Assembly (NCBI RefSeq): GCF_003334385.1
Contig: NZ_QOWN01000023.1
DNA: 64,000 nt
Reading direction: 5' to 3' (one strand)
DNA from: Escherichia coli
Lineage (GTDB): Bacteria > Pseudomonadota > Gammaproteobacteria > Enterobacterales > Enterobacteriaceae
In this document: in pieces, positions 2,291 through 10,771 of the stretch
Position numbering within the stretch: the first letter of the stretch is position 1
Layout of the letters: each line of letters opens with the position of its first letter
Translations under genes and position numbers: made by a program
The notes under the pieces: generated by a model
Database searches by the model: none
What the model was told of the DNA's origin: nothing
Seen by the model: the letters and a program-made list of their open reading frames with translations, nothing else

Positions 2291-3031
2291 ATGCTGCAAA
2301 ATATTCGAATTGTGCTGGTGGAGACGTCACACACCGGCAATATGGGTTCTGTTGCCCGTGCCATGAAAACAATGGGATTAACCAATCTGTGGCTGGTTAA
2401 TCCACTGGTGAAACCCGACTCCCAGGCGATTGCCCTGGCAGCAGGGGCCAGCGATGTGATTGGTAATGCTCACATCGTCGATACGCTCGACGAAGCGTTA
2501 GCCGGTTGTAGCCTGGTGGTGGGCACCAGCGCACGTTCCCGCACGCTGCCATGGCCGATGCTCGACCCGCGCGAATGCGGCCTGAAAAGCGTCGCTGAAG
2601 CGGCAAATACCCCGGTGGCGCTGGTGTTTGGTCGCGAGCGCGTCGGCTTGACCAATGAAGAGTTGCAGAAATGCCATTATCATGTCGCGATTGCGGCTAA
2701 CCCGGAATACAGCTCGCTGAACCTGGCGATGGCGGTTCAGGTTATTGCCTATGAAGTGCGCATGGCCTGGCTGGCAACTCAGGAAAACGGCGAGCAGGTC
2801 GAGCATGAAGAGACGCCGTATCCGCTGGTCGATGATCTGGAGCGTTTTTATGGTCATCTGGAACAAACGCTGCTGGCAACCGGTTTTATCCGTGAAAACC
2901 ATCCGGGGCAGGTGATGAATAAATTGCGCCGTCTGTTTACCCGTGCGCGCCCGGAAAGCCAGGAGTTGAATATCCTGCGCGGGATTCTGGCTTCTATTGA
3001 GCAGCAGAATAAAGGTAACAAGGCCGAATAA
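2291..3031 (+). CDS. trmJ: tRNA (cytidine/uridine-2'-O)-methyltransferase TrmJ (SpoU family)
   Basis: 246-aa ORF; SpoU/TrmH-type fold signature; position upstream of iscR. Confidence 0.92.
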
Positions 3032-3032
3032 C

Positions 3033-3396
<364 letters not shown>

Positions 3397-3463
3397 AACA
3401 GGTACAAACGCCACGATAAAAAAATGGCACTGAAGGTTAAATACCCGACTAAATCAGTCAAGT

Positions 3464-3535
3464 AAATAGTTGACCAATTTACTCGGGAATGTCAGACTTG
3501 ACCCTGCTATGCAATACCCCCACTTTTACAATAAA
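3464..3535 (+). promoter_or_regulatory. iscR promoter region with IscR type-1 operator-like sites
   Basis: ATAGTTGACCAATTTACTCGGGAAT followed by a second TTGACC-containing block and TACAAT (-10-like) just upstream of iscR; matches remembered IscR autoregulatory sites. Confidence 0.55.
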
Positions 3536-3573
3536 AAACCCCGGGCAGGGGCGAGTTTGAGGTGAAGTAAGAC

Positions 3574-4062
3574 ATGAGACTGACATCTAAAGGGCGCTAT
3601 GCCGTGACCGCAATGCTTGACGTTGCGCTCAACTCTGAAGCGGGCCCGGTACCGTTGGCTGATATTTCCGAACGTCAGGGAATTTCCCTTTCTTATCTGG
3701 AACAACTGTTTTCCCGTCTGCGTAAAAATGGTCTGGTTTCCAGCGTACGTGGACCAGGCGGTGGTTATCTGTTAGGCAAAGATGCCAGCAGCATCGCCGT
3801 TGGCGAAGTAATTAGCGCCGTTGACGAATCTGTAGATGCCACCCGTTGTCAGGGTAAAGGCGGCTGCCAGGGCGGCGATAAATGCCTGACCCACGCGCTG
3901 TGGCGTGATTTGAGCGACCGTCTCACCGGTTTTCTCAACAACATTACTTTAGGCGAACTGGTTAATAACCAGGAAGTGCTGGATGTGTCTGGTCGTCAGC
4001 ATACTCACGACGCGCCACGCACCCGCACACAAGACGCGATCGACGTTAAGTTACGCGCTTAA
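3574..4062 (+). CDS. iscR: Fe-S cluster regulator IscR (Rrf2 family)
   Basis: 162-aa ORF; N-terminal HTH; cluster-ligand cysteines in [13 protein letters not shown]. Confidence 0.97.
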
Positions 4063-4074
4063 TAAAAAGAATTC

Positions 4075-4136
4075 AGAATCAGGCCGGAGTGCTAAATACT
4101 CCGTAAACACGGTCGTACATCCAGCCGGTAGCCTGA
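4075..4136 (+). other. Structured iscR-iscS intergenic RNA element (long-range dyad AATCAGGCCGG ... CCGGTAGCCTGATT with nested hairpins)
   Basis: Dyad symmetry read directly; consistent with the intergenic structure reported to stabilise the iscR fragment after RyhB-dependent cleavage of the isc mRNA. Confidence 0.45.
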
Positions 4137-4173
4137 TTCCTTGCATTGAGTGATGTACGGAGTTTATAGAGCA

Positions 4174-5388
4174 ATGAAATTACCGATTTATCTCGACTAC
4201 TCCGCAACCACGCCGGTGGACCCGCGTGTTGCCGAGAAAATGATGCAGTTTATGACGATGGACGGAACCTTTGGTAACCCGGCCTCCCGTTCTCACCGTT
4301 TCGGCTGGCAGGCTGAAGAAGCGGTAGATATCGCCCGTAATCAGATTGCCGATCTGGTCGGCGCTGATCCGCGTGAAATCGTCTTTACCTCTGGTGCAAC
4401 CGAATCTGACAACCTGGCGATCAAAGGTGCAGCCAACTTTTATCAGAAAAAAGGCAAGCACATCATCACCAGCAAAACCGAACACAAAGCGGTACTGGAT
4501 ACCTGCCGTCAGCTGGAGCGCGAAGGTTTTGAAGTCACCTACCTGGCACCGCAGCGTAACGGCATTATCGACCTGAAAGAACTTGAAGCAGCGATGCGTG
4601 ACGACACCATCCTCGTGTCCATCATGCACGTAAATAACGAAATCGGCGTGGTGCAGGATATCGCGGCTATCGGCGAAATGTGCCGTGCTCGTGGCATTAT
4701 CTATCACGTTGATGCAACCCAGAGCGTGGGTAAACTGCCTATCGACCTGAGCCAGTTGAAAGTTGACCTGATGTCTTTCTCCGGTCACAAAATCTATGGC
4801 CCGAAAGGTATCGGTGCGCTGTATGTACGTCGTAAACCGCGCGTACGCATCGAAGCGCAAATGCACGGCGGCGGTCACGAGCGCGGTATGCGTTCCGGCA
4901 CTCTGCCTGTTCACCAGATCGTCGGAATGGGCGAGGCCTATCGCATCGCAAAAGAAGAGATGGCGACCGAGATGGAACGTCTGCGCGGCCTGCGTAACCG
5001 TCTGTGGAACGGCATCAAAGATATCGAAGAAGTTTACCTGAACGGTGACCTGGAACACGGTGCGCCGAACATTCTCAACGTCAGCTTCAACTACGTTGAA
5101 GGTGAGTCGCTGATTATGGCGCTGAAAGACCTCGCAGTTTCTTCAGGTTCCGCCTGTACGTCAGCAAGCCTCGAACCGTCCTACGTGCTGCGCGCGCTGG
5201 GGCTGAACGACGAGCTGGCACATAGCTCTATCCGTTTCTCTTTAGGTCGTTTTACTACTGAAGAAGAGATCGACTACACCATCGAGTTAGTTCGTAAATC
5301 CATCGGTCGTCTGCGTGACCTTTCTCCGCTGTGGGAAATGTACAAGCAGGGCGTGGATCTGAACAGCATCGAATGGGCTCATCATTAA
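4174..5388 (+). CDS. iscS: Cysteine desulfurase IscS (PLP-dependent)
   Basis: ORF 4150..5388; start at ATG 4174 ([13 protein letters not shown]) for 404 aa; PLP-lysine motif SFSGHK; active-site Cys in [10 protein letters not shown]. Confidence 0.97.
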
Positions 5389-5415
5389 TCGGTATCGGAA
5401 TCAGGAGAATTTATA

Positions 5416-5802
5416 ATGGCTTACAGCGAAAAAGTTATCGACCATTACGAGAATCCGCGTAACGTGGGTTCCTTTGACAACAACGACGAGAACGTCGGCA
5501 GCGGCATGGTGGGGGCACCGGCCTGTGGCGACGTGATGAAGTTGCAGATTAAAGTCAACGATGAAGGTATCATTGAAGACGCGCGTTTTAAAACTTACGG
5601 CTGCGGTTCCGCTATCGCTTCCAGCTCCCTGGTCACCGAATGGGTGAAAGGGAAGTCTCTCGACGAAGCGCAGGCGATCAAAAACACCGATATTGCTGAA
5701 GAACTTGAACTGCCGCCGGTGAAAATTCACTGTTCTATTCTGGCAGAAGACGCGATCAAAGCCGCCATTGCGGACTATAAAAGCAAACGTGAAGCAAAAT
5801 AA
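5416..5802 (+). CDS. iscU: Fe-S cluster scaffold IscU
   Basis: 128 aa; conserved Cys ligands (CGDVMKL, GCGSA) and LPPVK HscA-binding motif. Confidence 0.97.
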   Translation: MAYSEKVIDHYENPRNVGSFDNNDENVGSGMVGAPACGDVMKLQIKVNDEGIIEDARFKTYGCGSAIASSSLVTEWVKGKSLDEAQAIKNTDIAEELELPPVKIHCSILAEDAIKAAIADYKSKREAK

Positions 5803-5818
5803 GAGTTGAGGTTTGGTT

Positions 5819-6142
5819 ATGTCGATTACACTGAGCGACAGTGCAGCAGCGCGAGTAAATACCTTTCTGGCTAACCGCGGTAAAGGGTTTGGCCTGCGTC
5901 TGGGCGTGAGAACCTCCGGGTGTTCAGGTATGGCTTATGTACTGGAATTTGTTGACGAACCGACGCCGGAAGACATCGTGTTTGAAGACAAAGGCGTGAA
6001 AGTCGTGGTCGATGGCAAGAGCCTGCAATTTCTGGACGGTACGCAGCTGGACTTCGTAAAAGAAGGCCTGAACGAAGGGTTTAAATTCACCAACCCGAAC
6101 GTCAAAGATGAGTGTGGTTGCGGCGAAAGCTTCCACGTTTGA
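5819..6142 (+). CDS. iscA: Fe-S cluster insertion / A-type carrier protein IscA
   Basis: 107 aa from ATG 5819 ([10 protein letters not shown]); C-terminal CGCGESF motif. Confidence 0.95.
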
Positions 6143-6155
6143 TGCGCATACCGAT

Positions 6156-6193
6156 AACCCCACCGTGGTCGCCTGCGCGTGGGGTTTGTTTTA
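6156..6193 (+). terminator. Hairpin plus U-tract between iscA and hscB (possible intra-operon attenuator)
   Basis: CCCCAC ... GTGGGG stem followed by TTTGTTTT. Confidence 0.35.
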
Positions 6194-6237
6194 CCTGATT
6201 CGCCGTTATCGCGGCGGATCGCAGCCCTGAGAATGTT

Positions 6238-6753
6238 ATGGATTACTTCACCCTCTTTGGCTTGCCTGCCCGCTATCAACTCGATACCCAGGCGCTGAGC
6301 CTGCGTTTTCAGGATCTACAACGTCAGTATCATCCTGATAAATTCGCCAGCGGAAGCCAGGCGGAACAACTCGCCGCCGTACAGCAATCTGCAACCATTA
6401 ACCAGGCCTGGCAAACGCTGCGTCATCCGTTAATGCGCGCGGAATATTTGCTTTCTTTGCACGGCTTTGATCTCGCCAGCGAGCAGCATACTGTGCGCGA
6501 CACCGCGTTCCTGATGGAACAGTTGGAGCTGCGCGAAGAGCTGGACGAGATCGAACAGGCGAAAGATGAAGCGCGGCTGGAAAGCTTTATCAAACGTGTG
6601 AAAAAGATGTTTGATACCCGCCATCAGTTGATGGTTGAACAGTTAGACAACGAGACGTGGGACGCGGCGGCGGATACCGTGCGTAAGCTGCGTTTTCTCG
6701 ATAAACTGCGAAGCAGTGCCGAACAACTCGAAGAAAAACTGCTCGATTTTTAA
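6238..6753 (+). CDS. hscB: Co-chaperone HscB (J-domain protein, Hsc20)
   Basis: 171 aa; J-domain HPD motif (YHPDKF). Confidence 0.95.
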
Positions 6754-6769
6754 TTTCTGGAAGCTAAAC

Positions 6770-8620
6770 ATGGCCTTATTACAAATTAGTGAACCTGGTT
6801 TGAGTGCTGCGCCGCATCAGCGTCGTCTGGCGGCCGGTATTGACCTGGGCACAACCAACTCGCTGGTGGCGACAGTGCGCAGCGGTCAGGCCGAAACGTT
6901 AGCCGATCATGAAGGCCGTCACCTGCTGCCATCTGTTGTTCACTATCAACAGCAAGGGCATTCGGTGGGTTATGACGCGCGTACTAATGCAGCGCTCGAT
7001 ACCGCCAACACAATTAGTTCTGTTAAACGCCTGATGGGACGCTCGCTGGCTGATATCCAGCAACGCTATCCGCATCTGCCTTATCAATTCCAGGCCAGCG
7101 AAAACGGCCTGCCGATGATTGAAACGGCGGCGGGGCTGCTGAACCCGGTGCGCGTTTCTGCGGACATCCTCAAAGCACTGGCGGCGCGGGCAACTGAAGC
7201 CCTGGCAGGCGAGCTGGATGGTGTAGTTATCACCGTTCCGGCGTACTTTGACGATGCCCAGCGTCAGGGCACCAAAGACGCGGCGCGTCTGGCGGGCCTT
7301 CACGTCCTGCGCTTACTTAACGAACCGACCGCTGCGGCTATCGCCTACGGGCTGGATTCCGGTCAGGAAGGCGTGATCGCCGTTTATGACCTCGGTGGCG
7401 GGACGTTTGATATTTCCATTCTGCGCTTAAGTCGCGGCGTGTTTGAAGTGCTGGCAACCGGCGGTGATTCCGCGCTCGGCGGCGATGATTTCGACCATCT
7501 GCTGGCGGATTACATTCGCGAGCAGGCGGGCATTCCTGATCGTAGCGATAACCGCGTTCAGCGTGAACTGCTGGATGCCGCCATTGCAGCCAAAATCGCG
7601 CTGAGCGATGCGGACTCCGTGACCGTTAACGTTGCGGGCTGGCAGGGCGAAATCAGCCGTGAACAATTCAATGAACTGATCGCGCCACTGGTAAAACGAA
7701 CCTTACTGGCTTGTCGTCGCGCGCTGAAAGACGCGGGTGTAGAAGCTGATGAAGTGCTGGAAGTGGTGATGGTGGGCGGTTCTACTCGCGTGCCGCTGGT
7801 GCGTGAACGGGTAGGCGAATTTTTCGGTCGTCCACCGCTGACTTCCATCGACCCGGATAAAGTCGTCGCTATTGGCGCGGCGATTCAGGCGGATATTCTG
7901 GTGGGTAACAAGCCAGACAGCGAAATGCTGTTGCTTGATGTGATCCCACTGTCGCTGGGCCTCGAAACGATGGGCGGCCTGGTGGAGAAAGTGATTCCGC
8001 GTAATACCACTATTCCGGTGGCCCGCGCTCAGGATTTCACCACCTTTAAAGATGGTCAGACGGCGATGTCTATCCATGTAATGCAGGGTGAGCGCGAACT
8101 GGTGCAGGACTGCCGCTCACTGGCGCGTTTTGCGCTGCGTGGTATTCCGGCGCTACCGGCTGGCGGTGCGCATATTCGCGTGACGTTCCAGGTCGATGCC
8201 GACGGTCTTTTGAGCGTGACGGCGATGGAGAAATCCACCGGCGTTGAGGCGTCTATTCAGGTCAAACCGTCTTACGGTCTGACCGATAGCGAAATCGCTT
8301 CGATGATCAAAGACTCAATGAGCTATGCCGAGCAGGACGTAAAAGCCCGAATGCTGGCAGAACAAAAAGTAGAAGCGGCGCGTGTGCTGGAAAGTCTGCA
8401 CGGCGCGCTGGCTGCTGATGCCGCGCTGTTAAGCGCCGCAGAACGTCAGGTCATTGACGATGCTGCCGCTCACCTGAGTGAAGTGGCGCAGGGCGATGAT
8501 GTTGACGCCATCGAACAAGCGATTAAAAACGTAGACAAACAAACCCAGGATTTCGCCGCTCGCCGCATGGACCAGTCGGTTCGTCGTGCGCTGAAAGGCC
8601 ATTCCGTGGACGAGGTTTAA
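6770..8620 (+). CDS. hscA: Hsp70-type chaperone HscA (Hsc66)
   Basis: ORF 6716..8620; start at ATG 6770 ([10 protein letters not shown]) for 616 aa; Hsp70 signature IDLGTTNS. Confidence 0.95.
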
Positions 8621-8621
8621 T

Positions 8622-8957
8622 ATGCCAAAGATTGTTATTTTGCCTCATCAGGATCTCTGCCCTGATGGCGCTGTTCTGGAAGCTAATAGCGGTGAAACCA
8701 TTCTCGACGCAGCTCTGCGTAACGGTATCGAGATTGAACACGCCTGTGAAAAATCCTGTGCTTGCACCACCTGCCACTGCATCGTTCGTGAAGGTTTTGA
8801 CTCACTGCCGGAAAGCTCAGAGCAGGAAGACGACATGCTGGACAAAGCCTGGGGACTGGAGCCGGAAAGCCGTTTAAGCTGCCAGGCGCGCGTTACCGAC
8901 GAAGATTTAGTAGTCGAAATCCCGCGTTACACTATCAACCATGCGCGTGAGCATTAA
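8622..8957 (+). CDS. fdx: [2Fe-2S] ferredoxin Fdx
   Basis: 111 aa; cysteine cluster [12 protein letters not shown]. Confidence 0.95.
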
Positions 8958-8968
8958 CAGAGGTTAGT

Positions 8969-9169
8969 ATGGGACTTAAGTGGACCGATAGCCGCGAAAT
9001 TGGCGAAGCACTGTACGATGCGTATCCCGATCTTGATCCGAAAACGGTTCGATTCACCGATATGCATCAGTGGATTTGCGATCTGGAAGATTTCGACGAC
9101 GACCCGCAGGCATCCAACGAGAAAATCCTCGAAGCGATTTTGTTAGTCTGGCTGGACGAGGCCGAATAA
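8969..9169 (+). CDS. iscX: Fe-S assembly protein IscX (YfhJ)
   Basis: 66-aa acidic protein directly downstream of fdx. Confidence 0.92.
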
Positions 9170-9171
9170 TT

Positions 9172-9300
9172 TCCGCGTCATGCTTCACGCCGCAGATGCG
9201 TTGGCTGCGCTCGTTCACCCCAGTCACATAGTTATCTATGCTCCTGGGGCTTCACTCACTTGCCGCCTTCCTGCAACGCGAATCATTTAGCGGAAAAATC
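9172..9300. repeat. ERIC/IRU-like enterobacterial repetitive intergenic element
   Basis: Contains CTATGCTCCTGGGGCTTCACTCAC and, on the reverse strand, ATGTGACTGGGGTGAACGAGCGCAG, which match my memory of the ERIC1R/ERIC2 core consensus; boundaries approximate. Confidence 0.65.
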
Positions 9301-9346
9301 CTGGGGCTGCCAACTGGCGGCCCTTTTACAAAGAAGGATAACTAAA

Positions 9347-10630
9347 ATGACAGAAGCGATGAAGATTACCCTCTCTACCCAACCTGCCGACGCGCGCTGG
9401 GGAGAAAAAGCAACTTACAGCATTAATAATGACGGCATTACCCTGCATTTGAACGGGGCAGACGATCTGGGGCTGATCCAGCGTGCGGCGCGCAAGATTG
9501 ACGGTCTGGGCATCAAGCATGTTCAGTTAAGCGGTGAAGGCTGGGATGCGGATCGCTGCTGGGCATTCTGGCAAGGTTACAAAGCCCCGAAAGGCACGCG
9601 TAAAGTGGTGTGGCCGGATCTGGACGATGCCCAGCGCCAGGAACTGGATAACCGCCTGATGATCATCGACTGGGTGCGTGACACCATCAACGCACCGGCA
9701 GAAGAATTGGGACCATCGCAACTGGCACAGCGTGCTGTTGATCTGATCAGCAACGTCGCGGGCGATCGTGTGACTTATCGGATCACCAAAGGCGAAGATC
9801 TGCGTGAGCAAGGTTATATGGGGCTGCACACAGTCGGACGCGGTTCAGAACGTTCTCCGGTATTGCTGGCGCTGGATTACAACCCAACTGGCGATAAAGA
9901 AGCGCCAGTGTACGCGTGCCTGGTAGGTAAAGGTATCACTTTTGACTCCGGCGGCTACAGCATCAAACAGACTGCGTTTATGGACTCGATGAAGTCGGAC
10001 ATGGGCGGCGCGGCAACGGTTACCGGGGCGCTGGCATTTGCCATTACGCGCGGACTGAACAAGCGCGTGAAGCTGTTCCTCTGCTGTGCGGATAACCTGA
10101 TTAGCGGCAATGCGTTCAAGCTGGGCGATATCATCACCTATCGCAACGGTAAAAAAGTTGAAGTGATGAACACTGATGCCGAAGGGCGTCTGGTGCTTGC
10201 CGATGGTCTGATTGATGCCAGTGCGCAGAAACCGGAAATGATCATTGATGCGGCGACCCTCACCGGGGCGGCGAAAACTGCGCTGGGTAATGATTATCAC
10301 GCGCTGTTCAGTTTTGACGATGCGCTGGCCGGTCGCTTGCTGGCGAGTGCCGCGCAGGAGAACGAACCGTTCTGGCGTCTGCCGCTGGCGGAGTTCCACC
10401 GCAGCCAGCTGCCGTCTAACTTTGCCGAACTGAACAATACCGGAAGCGCGGCGTATCCGGCAGGCGCGAGCACGGCGGCGGGCTTCCTGTCGCACTTTGT
10501 TGAGAACTATCAGCAAGGCTGGCTGCATATCGACTGCTCGGCGACTTACCGTAAAGCGCCGGTTGAACAGTGGTCTGCGGGCGCTACGGGACTTGGTGTG
10601 CGCACGATAGCTAATCTGTTAACGGCGTAA
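9347..10630 (+). CDS. pepB: Peptidase B (M17 leucyl aminopeptidase family)
   Basis: ORF 9260..10630; start at ATG 9347 ([10 protein letters not shown]) for 427 aa; M17 motif NTDAEGRL. Confidence 0.93.
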
Positions 10631-10638
10631 ACTAATAT

Positions 10639-10736
<98 letters not shown>

Positions 10737-10771
10737 TTTGCGCCCCGAACGTTGAATGAATTGTGGTTCTT

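Follow-up and report, generated by a model that had tools for sequence, protein, structure and literature searches.

A conserved hairpin and U-rich tract between iscA and hscB as a candidate leaky terminator within the Escherichia coli isc operon

The ISC scaffold proteins (IscS, IscU and IscA) and chaperones (HscB, HscA and Fdx) are needed in different amounts, which raises the question of what happens to transcription at the junction between iscA and hscB. We addressed this in a 64,000-nt stretch of E. coli DNA (hereafter the window), in which the genes around the junction run suhB, trmJ, iscR, iscS, iscU, iscA, hscB, hscA, fdx, iscX and pepB. The coding sequence of iscA (5819..6142, plus strand; stop codon TGA at 6140–6142) was placed from the list of open reading frames and its translation and from the annotation of iscA in E. 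coli genomes. This gene closes the iscRSUA part of the operon. The downstream part (hscBA-fdx-iscX) opens with hscB (6238..6753, plus strand), whose ATG is at 6238, and the untranslated spacer between the two genes is 95 nt. RegulonDB lists two operons here, iscRSUA and hscBA-fdx-iscX, with this spacer as the boundary, so the boundary itself is already annotated. The original prediction for this spacer was that a hairpin within it partially terminates transcription, as an attenuator, and thereby lowers hscBA-fdx relative to iscSUA.

That prediction described a CCCCAC...GTGGGG hairpin followed by a run of T's inside the isc operon after iscA, and both its coordinates and its description proved correct on analysis with an inverted-repeat finder and RNA folding. 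The inverted-repeat finder returned two arms of 8 nt, AACCCCAC (6156–6163) and GTGGGGTT (6179–6186), which are 100% complementary and 15 nt apart. RNA folding gave a full stem of 13 pairs with one bulged C (6178) and a 4-nt UCGC loop. The lower stem of this structure (hairpin 1; 6156..6186, plus strand; further supported by covariation, described below) is formed by AACCCCAC/GUGGGGUU and has 8 perfect pairs, 6 of them G-C, while the upper stem has 5 pairs, two of them G-U. Its folding energy is −18.9 kcal/mol, whereas dinucleotide shuffles average −10.95 ± 2.26 (z −3.52), with 1 in 200 of them folding equally well. Directly adjoining the hairpin is TTTGTTTT at 6185–6192, the first two T's of which double as the last two stem pairs. 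The corresponding U-rich tract, UUUGUUUU (6185..6192, plus strand), has 7 U in the 8 nt after GGGG. The whole element ends 45 nt before the hscB ATG. Hairpin 1 thus shows the anatomy of an intrinsic terminator, with a G+C-rich stem, a short loop and a U-rich tract directly 3' of it. Moreover, it is on the sense strand and untranslated, and its stem starts 14 nt past the iscA stop, clear of the terminating ribosome. If intrinsic termination happens here, an RNA 3' end would be expected at ~6190–6193.

To ask how often such a site arises by chance, we searched the window, on both strands, for any single hairpin with at least 6 U among the 8 nt that directly follow it. Hairpin 1 ranked 7th of the 199 sites found. 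Seven sites in the window had ΔG ≤ −17.5 kcal/mol, versus 1.6 ± 1.1 per 128 kb in 12 dinucleotide shuffles, and the chance expectation for a site of this kind is ~0.001 per 95-nt spacer per strand. The pattern CCCCAC-N(4-30)-GTGGGG occurred once in the window (0.05 expected). With this single match and one copy per genome, a repeat element was rejected. A simple terminator scan with a loop limit of 3–8 did not list hairpin 1, likely because the bulge leaves an 8-bp perfect stem with a 15-nt 'loop'.

The remainder of the spacer holds a second hairpin (hairpin 2; 6197..6220, plus strand), predicted by RNA folding as GAUUCGCCGU-UAUC-GCGGCGGAUC, with 10 bp, just before the weak hscB ribosome-binding site. 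No U's follow it, and a C-rich region lies just downstream. These are features of protective stem-loops of Rho-dependent transcripts, which hairpin 2 fits, whereas hairpin 1 has its U-tract. Hairpin 2 is a candidate for an exonuclease barrier or for a 5' structure of the hscB message. Outside E. coli it was seen in E. albertii and Citrobacter sp. R56 alone, the spacers of other Enterobacteriaceae being shorter. The E. albertii version has 5 differences (4 in the stem, 1 in the loop), with all stem pairs kept and one C-G pair changed to U-A, and pairing is also kept in strain LR-28 and in Citrobacter sp. R56. A 7-nt perfect inverted repeat, CGATAAC/GTTATCG (6152–6158 and 6205–6211), matches bases 5' of hairpin 1 to the loop of hairpin 2. 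The repeat has no conserved counterpart in E. albertii; we treated it as probably due to chance.

Reading on from the spacer, the hscB start consists of a weak Shine–Dalgarno element (GAGA) and the ATG (6229..6240, plus strand), and the motif CCCTGAGA(A/T)TGTT-ATG at this start is kept in Enterobacteriaceae spacers. The beginning of hscB is C-rich and G-poor (6200..6460, plus strand; C/G ratio 1.2–1.8 in 78-nt windows), making it a plausible Rho loading region. The ratio reaches its maximum for the operon, 1.8, at 6244, within the first 200 nt of hscB. Taxa that have no spacer show this skew in hscB too, so the bias reflects the protein sequence and not selection for a Rho site. Hence we rejected the C-richness of early hscB as a selected Rho site, although it may still serve as one. 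The only ORF overlapping the spacer (6108–6230, plus strand; 40 codons) has its ATG inside iscA and its end 8 nt short of the hscB start codon. Some RefSeq annotations of E. coli list it as hypothetical protein WP_000117579.1. Because a frameshift interrupts it in E. albertii and it is not conserved, we rejected it as a small protein; it is probably spurious.

Is hairpin 1 maintained by evolution? Within E. coli, the 601 bases around it matched 5,426 of 5,426 complete genomes, once each. The spacer is identical to that of K-12 MG1655, and it is 100% identical in ~92% of the same genomes. Both stems are preserved in the rare variants. Strain LR-28, for example, carries five spacer changes, three of which fall in loops; the remaining two convert stem pairs, G-C or C-G, to G-U or U-G. 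One substitution affects the first U of the tract: U6185G (T-to-G, changing GGGGTTTG to GGGGGTTG) occurs in the O157:H7 lineage (ATCC 43888) and also in strain SMN013SH2. This change should weaken any intrinsic termination.

For comparison across species, we fetched 80 loci through IscA and located each spacer. The structure test was applied to all spacers that reach 40 nt, 67 in number (66 from the fetched loci and that of the window). They showed much more structure than their shuffles did (mean z −2.15, 57% below −2), as compared to a mean z of 0.08, with 4.6% below −2, for hscB-internal controls of the same length. Among 22 aligned Enterobacteriaceae, the CCCCA...UGGGG core of hairpin 1 is invariant, and the outer and upper pairs vary with compensation, 7 pairs being altered on both sides. 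Paired cells made up 88% of this alignment versus 80% in shuffles (0 of 500 reached the observed value), and controls in which the alignment was slid gave 34–53%. There were 16 G-U cells and 5 A-C cells, which favors a structure formed by sense-strand RNA. The U-tract is conserved as well: in 21 of the 22, 5–7 of the 8 nt that follow GGGG are U, and the sequence just past it diverges while the U-rich tail stays. Spacer length is not conserved, ranging from 62 to 127 nt in related genera. The distance from stop to stem was 12–18 nt in those Enterobacteriaceae in which the CCCCAC stem is the best-scoring hairpin, with the proviso that the hairpin scan stretches the stem toward the stop in some loci, which affects these distances.

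Families differed in whether the hairpin is accompanied by U's. A hairpin with a U-rich tail was found in 23 of 26 Enterobacteriaceae and 5 of 6 Erwiniaceae. A stable hairpin without U's was seen in Yersiniaceae (7 of 8), Pectobacteriaceae (4 of 5), Hafniaceae (2 of 3) and Budviciaceae (2 of 2). Morganellaceae spacers have little structure, and those of Pasteurellaceae are under 30 nt. Judged from these sequences, a stable hairpin after iscA is a common trait of the families that carry it, and the U-tract is a trait of Enterobacteriaceae and Erwiniaceae. Because related families keep the hairpin without the U-tract, the feature shared across families may be the hairpin and not termination. Taken as a whole, the hairpin 1 element is a functional RNA.

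An attenuator in the regulated sense would switch between alternative structures. The six core pairs of hairpin 1 had probabilities of 0.978–0.997 in 28 folding contexts spanning 5980–6300, and no mutually exclusive terminator and antiterminator structures were found in those contexts. Two candidate antiterminators were rejected, as hairpin 1 dominates every fold. One involved GUGUGGUU at the end of iscA. The other was a downstream GGGG/CCCU pairing enclosing hairpin 2, which is also excluded because a downstream partner cannot act before termination. A search of 3000–11000 against Rfam at E ≤ 1 gave no match in the spacer, and the overlapping ORF is not conserved; we thus found no sensor in the form of a leader peptide, ligand-binding fold or protein site. 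With no competing structure, and a probability of ~0.98 or higher in all contexts, hairpin 1 is not a switchable attenuator, and the term does not apply here in its regulated sense.

Elsewhere in the window, the iscRS stability element (RF01517) gave a full-length match of 138 bits at 4063–4172, between iscR and iscS. The spacer between iscX and pepB (9118–9295, minus strand) had sub-threshold Rfam matches to V_AS5 and CssrA, and the region after pepB (10610–10714) had REP-like matches to naRNA4 and ES036. Between trmJ and iscR lies a tandem array (3031–3397) of a 91-bp REP/BIME-type unit, present in 4.0 copies versus 3.0 in K-12 MG1655, so the window comes from a different strain than MG1655. 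Three copies of this unit match naRNA4 (RF02564) above threshold.

To relate published transcript data to the window, K-12 coordinates were converted by w = 2659563 + 6142 − coordinate. This formula holds for w above ~3430, since the window has one extra 91-bp repeat unit upstream of iscR compared to MG1655. In SMRT-Cappable-seq, primary transcripts are sequenced end to end. One species in that data set covers iscS-iscU-iscA and starts at K-12 2661560 (window 4145), a position inside the RF01517 match. Another, trmJ-iscRSUA, starts at K-12 2663347, upstream of the repeat array, where the formula is invalid. Transcripts covering iscRSUA-hscB start at K-12 2662172, 2662199 and 2662200 (window 3533, 3506 and 3505, respectively), and iscA-hscB-hscA starts at K-12 2660232 (window 5473). 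Finally, hscA and hscA-fdx-iscX start at K-12 2658990 (minus strand; window 6715), inside the 3' end of hscB, where there is a weak –10-like TAAACT at 6702–6707. From these species it follows that some RNAs have their 3' ends in the interval from the iscA stop to the hscB stop, while others read through. From the iscR promoter, only read-through variants (iscRSUA-hscB) are called. All eight isc genes are induced together, 10–15 fold, under one stress (15.5-fold for hscB and 10.9-fold for iscA), as would be predicted were hscBA to rely on read-through from the iscR promoter. RyhB also represses hscBA, at the hscA ribosome-binding site, so more than one mechanism sets the iscSUA and hscBA blocks apart.

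The 1175, 882 and 1053 curated dominant Term-seq 3' ends of Adams et al. 2021 include none in the isc locus. This is a weak negative, since each condition is represented by only ~1,000 ends, of which just a quarter or so are gene-terminal, and the lists capture a fraction of terminators. The TERMITe tables have no isc entry, and a full-text literature search turned up no paper discussing a terminator or stem-loop between iscA and hscB.

The same data set does place a Rho-termination region near the junction, at 2659283(–) of NC_000913.3, corresponding to window 6422, 184 nt into hscB (Adams et al. 2021). Reads upstream and downstream of this site, counted in 800-nt windows, stood at 214 and 104 in the absence of bicyclomycin, and at 293 and 270 in its presence (Rho score 1.9, p = 1e-5). 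The downstream/upstream ratio thus rises from 0.49 to 0.92 when Rho is inhibited, bearing in mind that 800-nt windows do not separate hairpin 1 from hscB; 71% of the upstream one lies before the U-tract and 29% after. Rough arithmetic on these low read counts puts intrinsic termination at ~10% as a best estimate, with an upper bound of ~30%, assuming equal RNA stability and ignoring the internal start at 6715, which adds downstream RNA. Most of the ~2-fold drop appears to come from Rho in early hscB, not from hairpin 1. The two functional claims of the original prediction hence stand in part. Terminator anatomy and the conserved U-tract argue for partial termination at the hairpin, but read-through is frequent and no Term-seq end dominates. 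RNA for hscBA-fdx is indeed lowered relative to iscSUA, being ~2-fold less abundant downstream, but the drop is centered inside hscB and is mostly abolished by bicyclomycin.

A second Rho-termination region in the vicinity maps to NC_000913.3 2662135, minus strand, or window ~3570 (Adams et al. 2021). Its peak is 4 nt upstream of the iscR ATG, though with 800-nt windows the actual site could be at some distance from this peak. Its presumed targets are transcripts that come from trmJ and cross the repeat array.

One further published feature falls on hairpin 1. Prevost et al. 2025 number the hscBA RNA from an hscB promoter, and in their fragment '+486 to +685 from hscB promoter', positions 92–99 contain the hscA Shine–Dalgarno element. 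That element is at window 6758–6763, so the reported +1 would be at ~6180–6182, in the 3' arm of hairpin 1. We detected no promoter-like site in 6100–6237 on the plus strand, and no SMRT-Cappable-seq start is listed at 26594xx–26596xx. Given the back-calculated +1, the primer-extension signal for hscB may be a reverse-transcriptase stop or a processed end.

The explanation we favor, to which we assign a probability of about 50%, is that hairpin 1 and its U-tract form an intrinsic terminator that is constitutive and leaky, also protects the RNA 3' end, and acts alongside Rho polarity in early hscB. The element would mark the 3' edge of the iscRSUA part within one long isc transcript. A minority of RNA polymerases would stop and release RNA in the U-tract, at ~6190–6193, and hairpin 1 would act as a barrier to 3' exonucleases, giving the iscRSUA RNA species a stable end. 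The majority of polymerases would continue into hscB, with its weak ribosome-binding site and C-rich first 200 nt, and Rho would remove about half of the transcripts there. The Rho-terminated RNAs would presumably be trimmed back to hairpin 2 or hairpin 1, each route contributing some share. The net effect would be ~2-fold less hscBA-fdx-iscX RNA than iscSUA RNA, with hscBA still following the iscR promoter. What we observed in support of a leaky terminator is structure, position, covariation, a conserved U-tract and no competing fold; the operon boundary, the read-through transcripts and the bicyclomycin-sensitive drop are from published data. Several findings weigh against it: the ratio of 0.92 with Rho inhibited leaves little room for intrinsic termination, U6185G is tolerated in the O157:H7 lineage, the curated Term-seq ends include none in the locus, the variants called from the iscR promoter all read through, and related families have the hairpin without the U-tract.

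The main rival, which we consider possible though clearly less probable, is that hairpins 1 and 2 only stabilize RNA, without meaningful termination. RNA 3' ends would then arise from Rho action in early hscB, or from RNase E cleavage within the U-rich single-stranded segment that separates the hairpins. Exonucleases would trim back as far as the hairpins, which would shield the iscRSUA segment, and differential stability would set the ratio. The bicyclomycin sensitivity of the drop and its position in hscB are consistent with this, as is the fact that no dominant Term-seq end is reported in the U-tract. The arrangement also fits a pattern in which Rho loads just after a stable stem-loop (Dar & Sorek 2018), given that the C-rich region here comes directly after hairpin 2. 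Yersiniaceae, Pectobacteriaceae, Hafniaceae and Budviciaceae have hairpins after iscA without a U-tract, and a stabilizing hairpin is already used in the same operon, between iscR and iscS (RF01517, 4063–4172). Yet a pure exonuclease barrier needs no U's, and the U-rich tail is kept in 21 of the 22 aligned Enterobacteriaceae. By sequence, moreover, hairpin 1 is as good as other terminators in the window (7 of 199), and the universal, coding-driven C bias of early hscB provides no evidence for a selected Rho site.

Three other readings are less likely still. It is improbable that hairpin 1 efficiently ends iscRSUA and that a separate promoter within the spacer, the one described for hscB by Lelivelt & Kawula 1995, drives most expression of hscBA-fdx-iscX. 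RegulonDB's two operons, the numbering used by Prevost et al. 2025 and the strength of hairpin 1 by sequence would all suit such an arrangement. It is at odds with the lack of SMRT-Cappable-seq starts at the spacer and of a promoter-like site there, with read-through species that begin at the iscR promoter and within iscU, and with induction of hscB as strong as that of iscA. The +1 in the 3' arm of hairpin 1 is also just where a reverse-transcriptase stop or processed end would put it. Conditional antitermination is unlikely to a similar degree, if marginally easier to entertain; here a trans-acting factor, such as a CspA-family cold-shock protein melting the stem, would change terminator efficiency, which would explain cold induction of HscA. 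CspA-family proteins are reportedly antiterminators at intrinsic terminators, and the upper stem of hairpin 1 has two G-U pairs and a bulge. One published report describes cspD as an attenuator of termination, and Hsc66 (HscA) is cold-shock induced according to the title of Lelivelt & Kawula 1995. But no cis-encoded alternative structure exists in the folds, and a search of the cold-shock literature found no transcriptome in which hscBA rises without iscRSUA. Even full antitermination could not give a large induction, because the RNA drop at the junction is only ~2-fold. Least probable of all, to the point that we give it almost no weight, is that the inverted repeat is no RNA element but a DNA site, such as an IscR type 2 site, or a functionless chance palindrome. 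By eye, ATAACCCC and GGGGTTTG each resemble what we take to be the outer halves of the IscR type 2 consensus (AACCCC/GGGGTT), and this likeness is the point in its favor. The halves of an IscR type 2 site are 10 bp apart, however, and those here are 19 bp apart. Since spacing varies between genera while pairing is kept, an RNA stem is favored over a DNA site of fixed geometry, and an IscR type 2 site was rejected on these grounds. The G-U pairs point to sense RNA, and both the chance expectation of ~0.001 and conservation of the hairpin across many genera speak against a chance palindrome.

Parts of these readings can be combined into a bolder one, which we regard as rather unlikely. The spacer would be a composite control point, in which the classical 'hscB promoter' is not a promoter, its +1 being a reverse-transcriptase stop or processed end at hairpin 1. 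Expression of hscBA-fdx-iscX would be set by read-through of hairpin 1 together with Rho polarity, and read-through would be raised in the cold by CspA-type antitermination. If true, this would explain the cold induction of HscA.

Returning to the leaky terminator, knowing the mechanism at the junction would clarify how the scaffold:chaperone ratio is set and whether the long-cited hscB promoter exists. The gain is a refined map of an E. coli operon rather than a new principle: hairpin 1 is an ordinary, uncharacterized example of a very familiar signal at an operon boundary that is already annotated.

Among known systems, the textbook case of a partial intrinsic terminator inside an operon is the rplL-rpoB attenuator of the rplKAJL-rpoBC operon. 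Like hairpin 1, it is a stem-loop with a U-tract that occupies an untranslated spacer separating two gene blocks of a single transcript. There, partial stopping and partial read-through lower the downstream genes, behavior that the sequence predicts for hairpin 1. Unlike that attenuator, termination at the iscA-hscB hairpin is suggested by the data to be weak, with Rho doing most of the work. Selective RNA processing and stabilization by an intercistronic stem-loop is exemplified by the REP element between malE and malF. A related principle is put forward in PMC10667835, which reports that stem-loop strength at the 3' end of the upstream cistron sets operon stoichiometry. To that extent it resembles the proposal made here, in which an intercistronic stem-loop sets a ratio within an operon; its main text mentions no isc gene.

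Two further systems are close to the junction in other respects. In the class described by Dar & Sorek 2018 (PMC6061677), Rho-dependent transcripts end just after stable stem-loops, with a Rho loading site immediately downstream. The isc junction shares with this class a stable stem-loop just upstream of a C-rich region and bicyclomycin-sensitive read-through. The description suits hairpin 2, and also the hairpins without U's found in Yersiniaceae and Pectobacteriaceae, whereas the conserved U-tract of hairpin 1 is absent from the class. RF01517, the iscRS stability element, acts together with RyhB and Hfq and shields iscR once cleavage has occurred, whereas the iscA-hscB hairpin has no known small-RNA partner, matches no Rfam family and carries a U-tract. 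What the two have in common is that each is an intercistronic hairpin of the isc mRNA at which the adjoining segments meet different fates, as known for RF01517 and as proposed here for hairpin 1.
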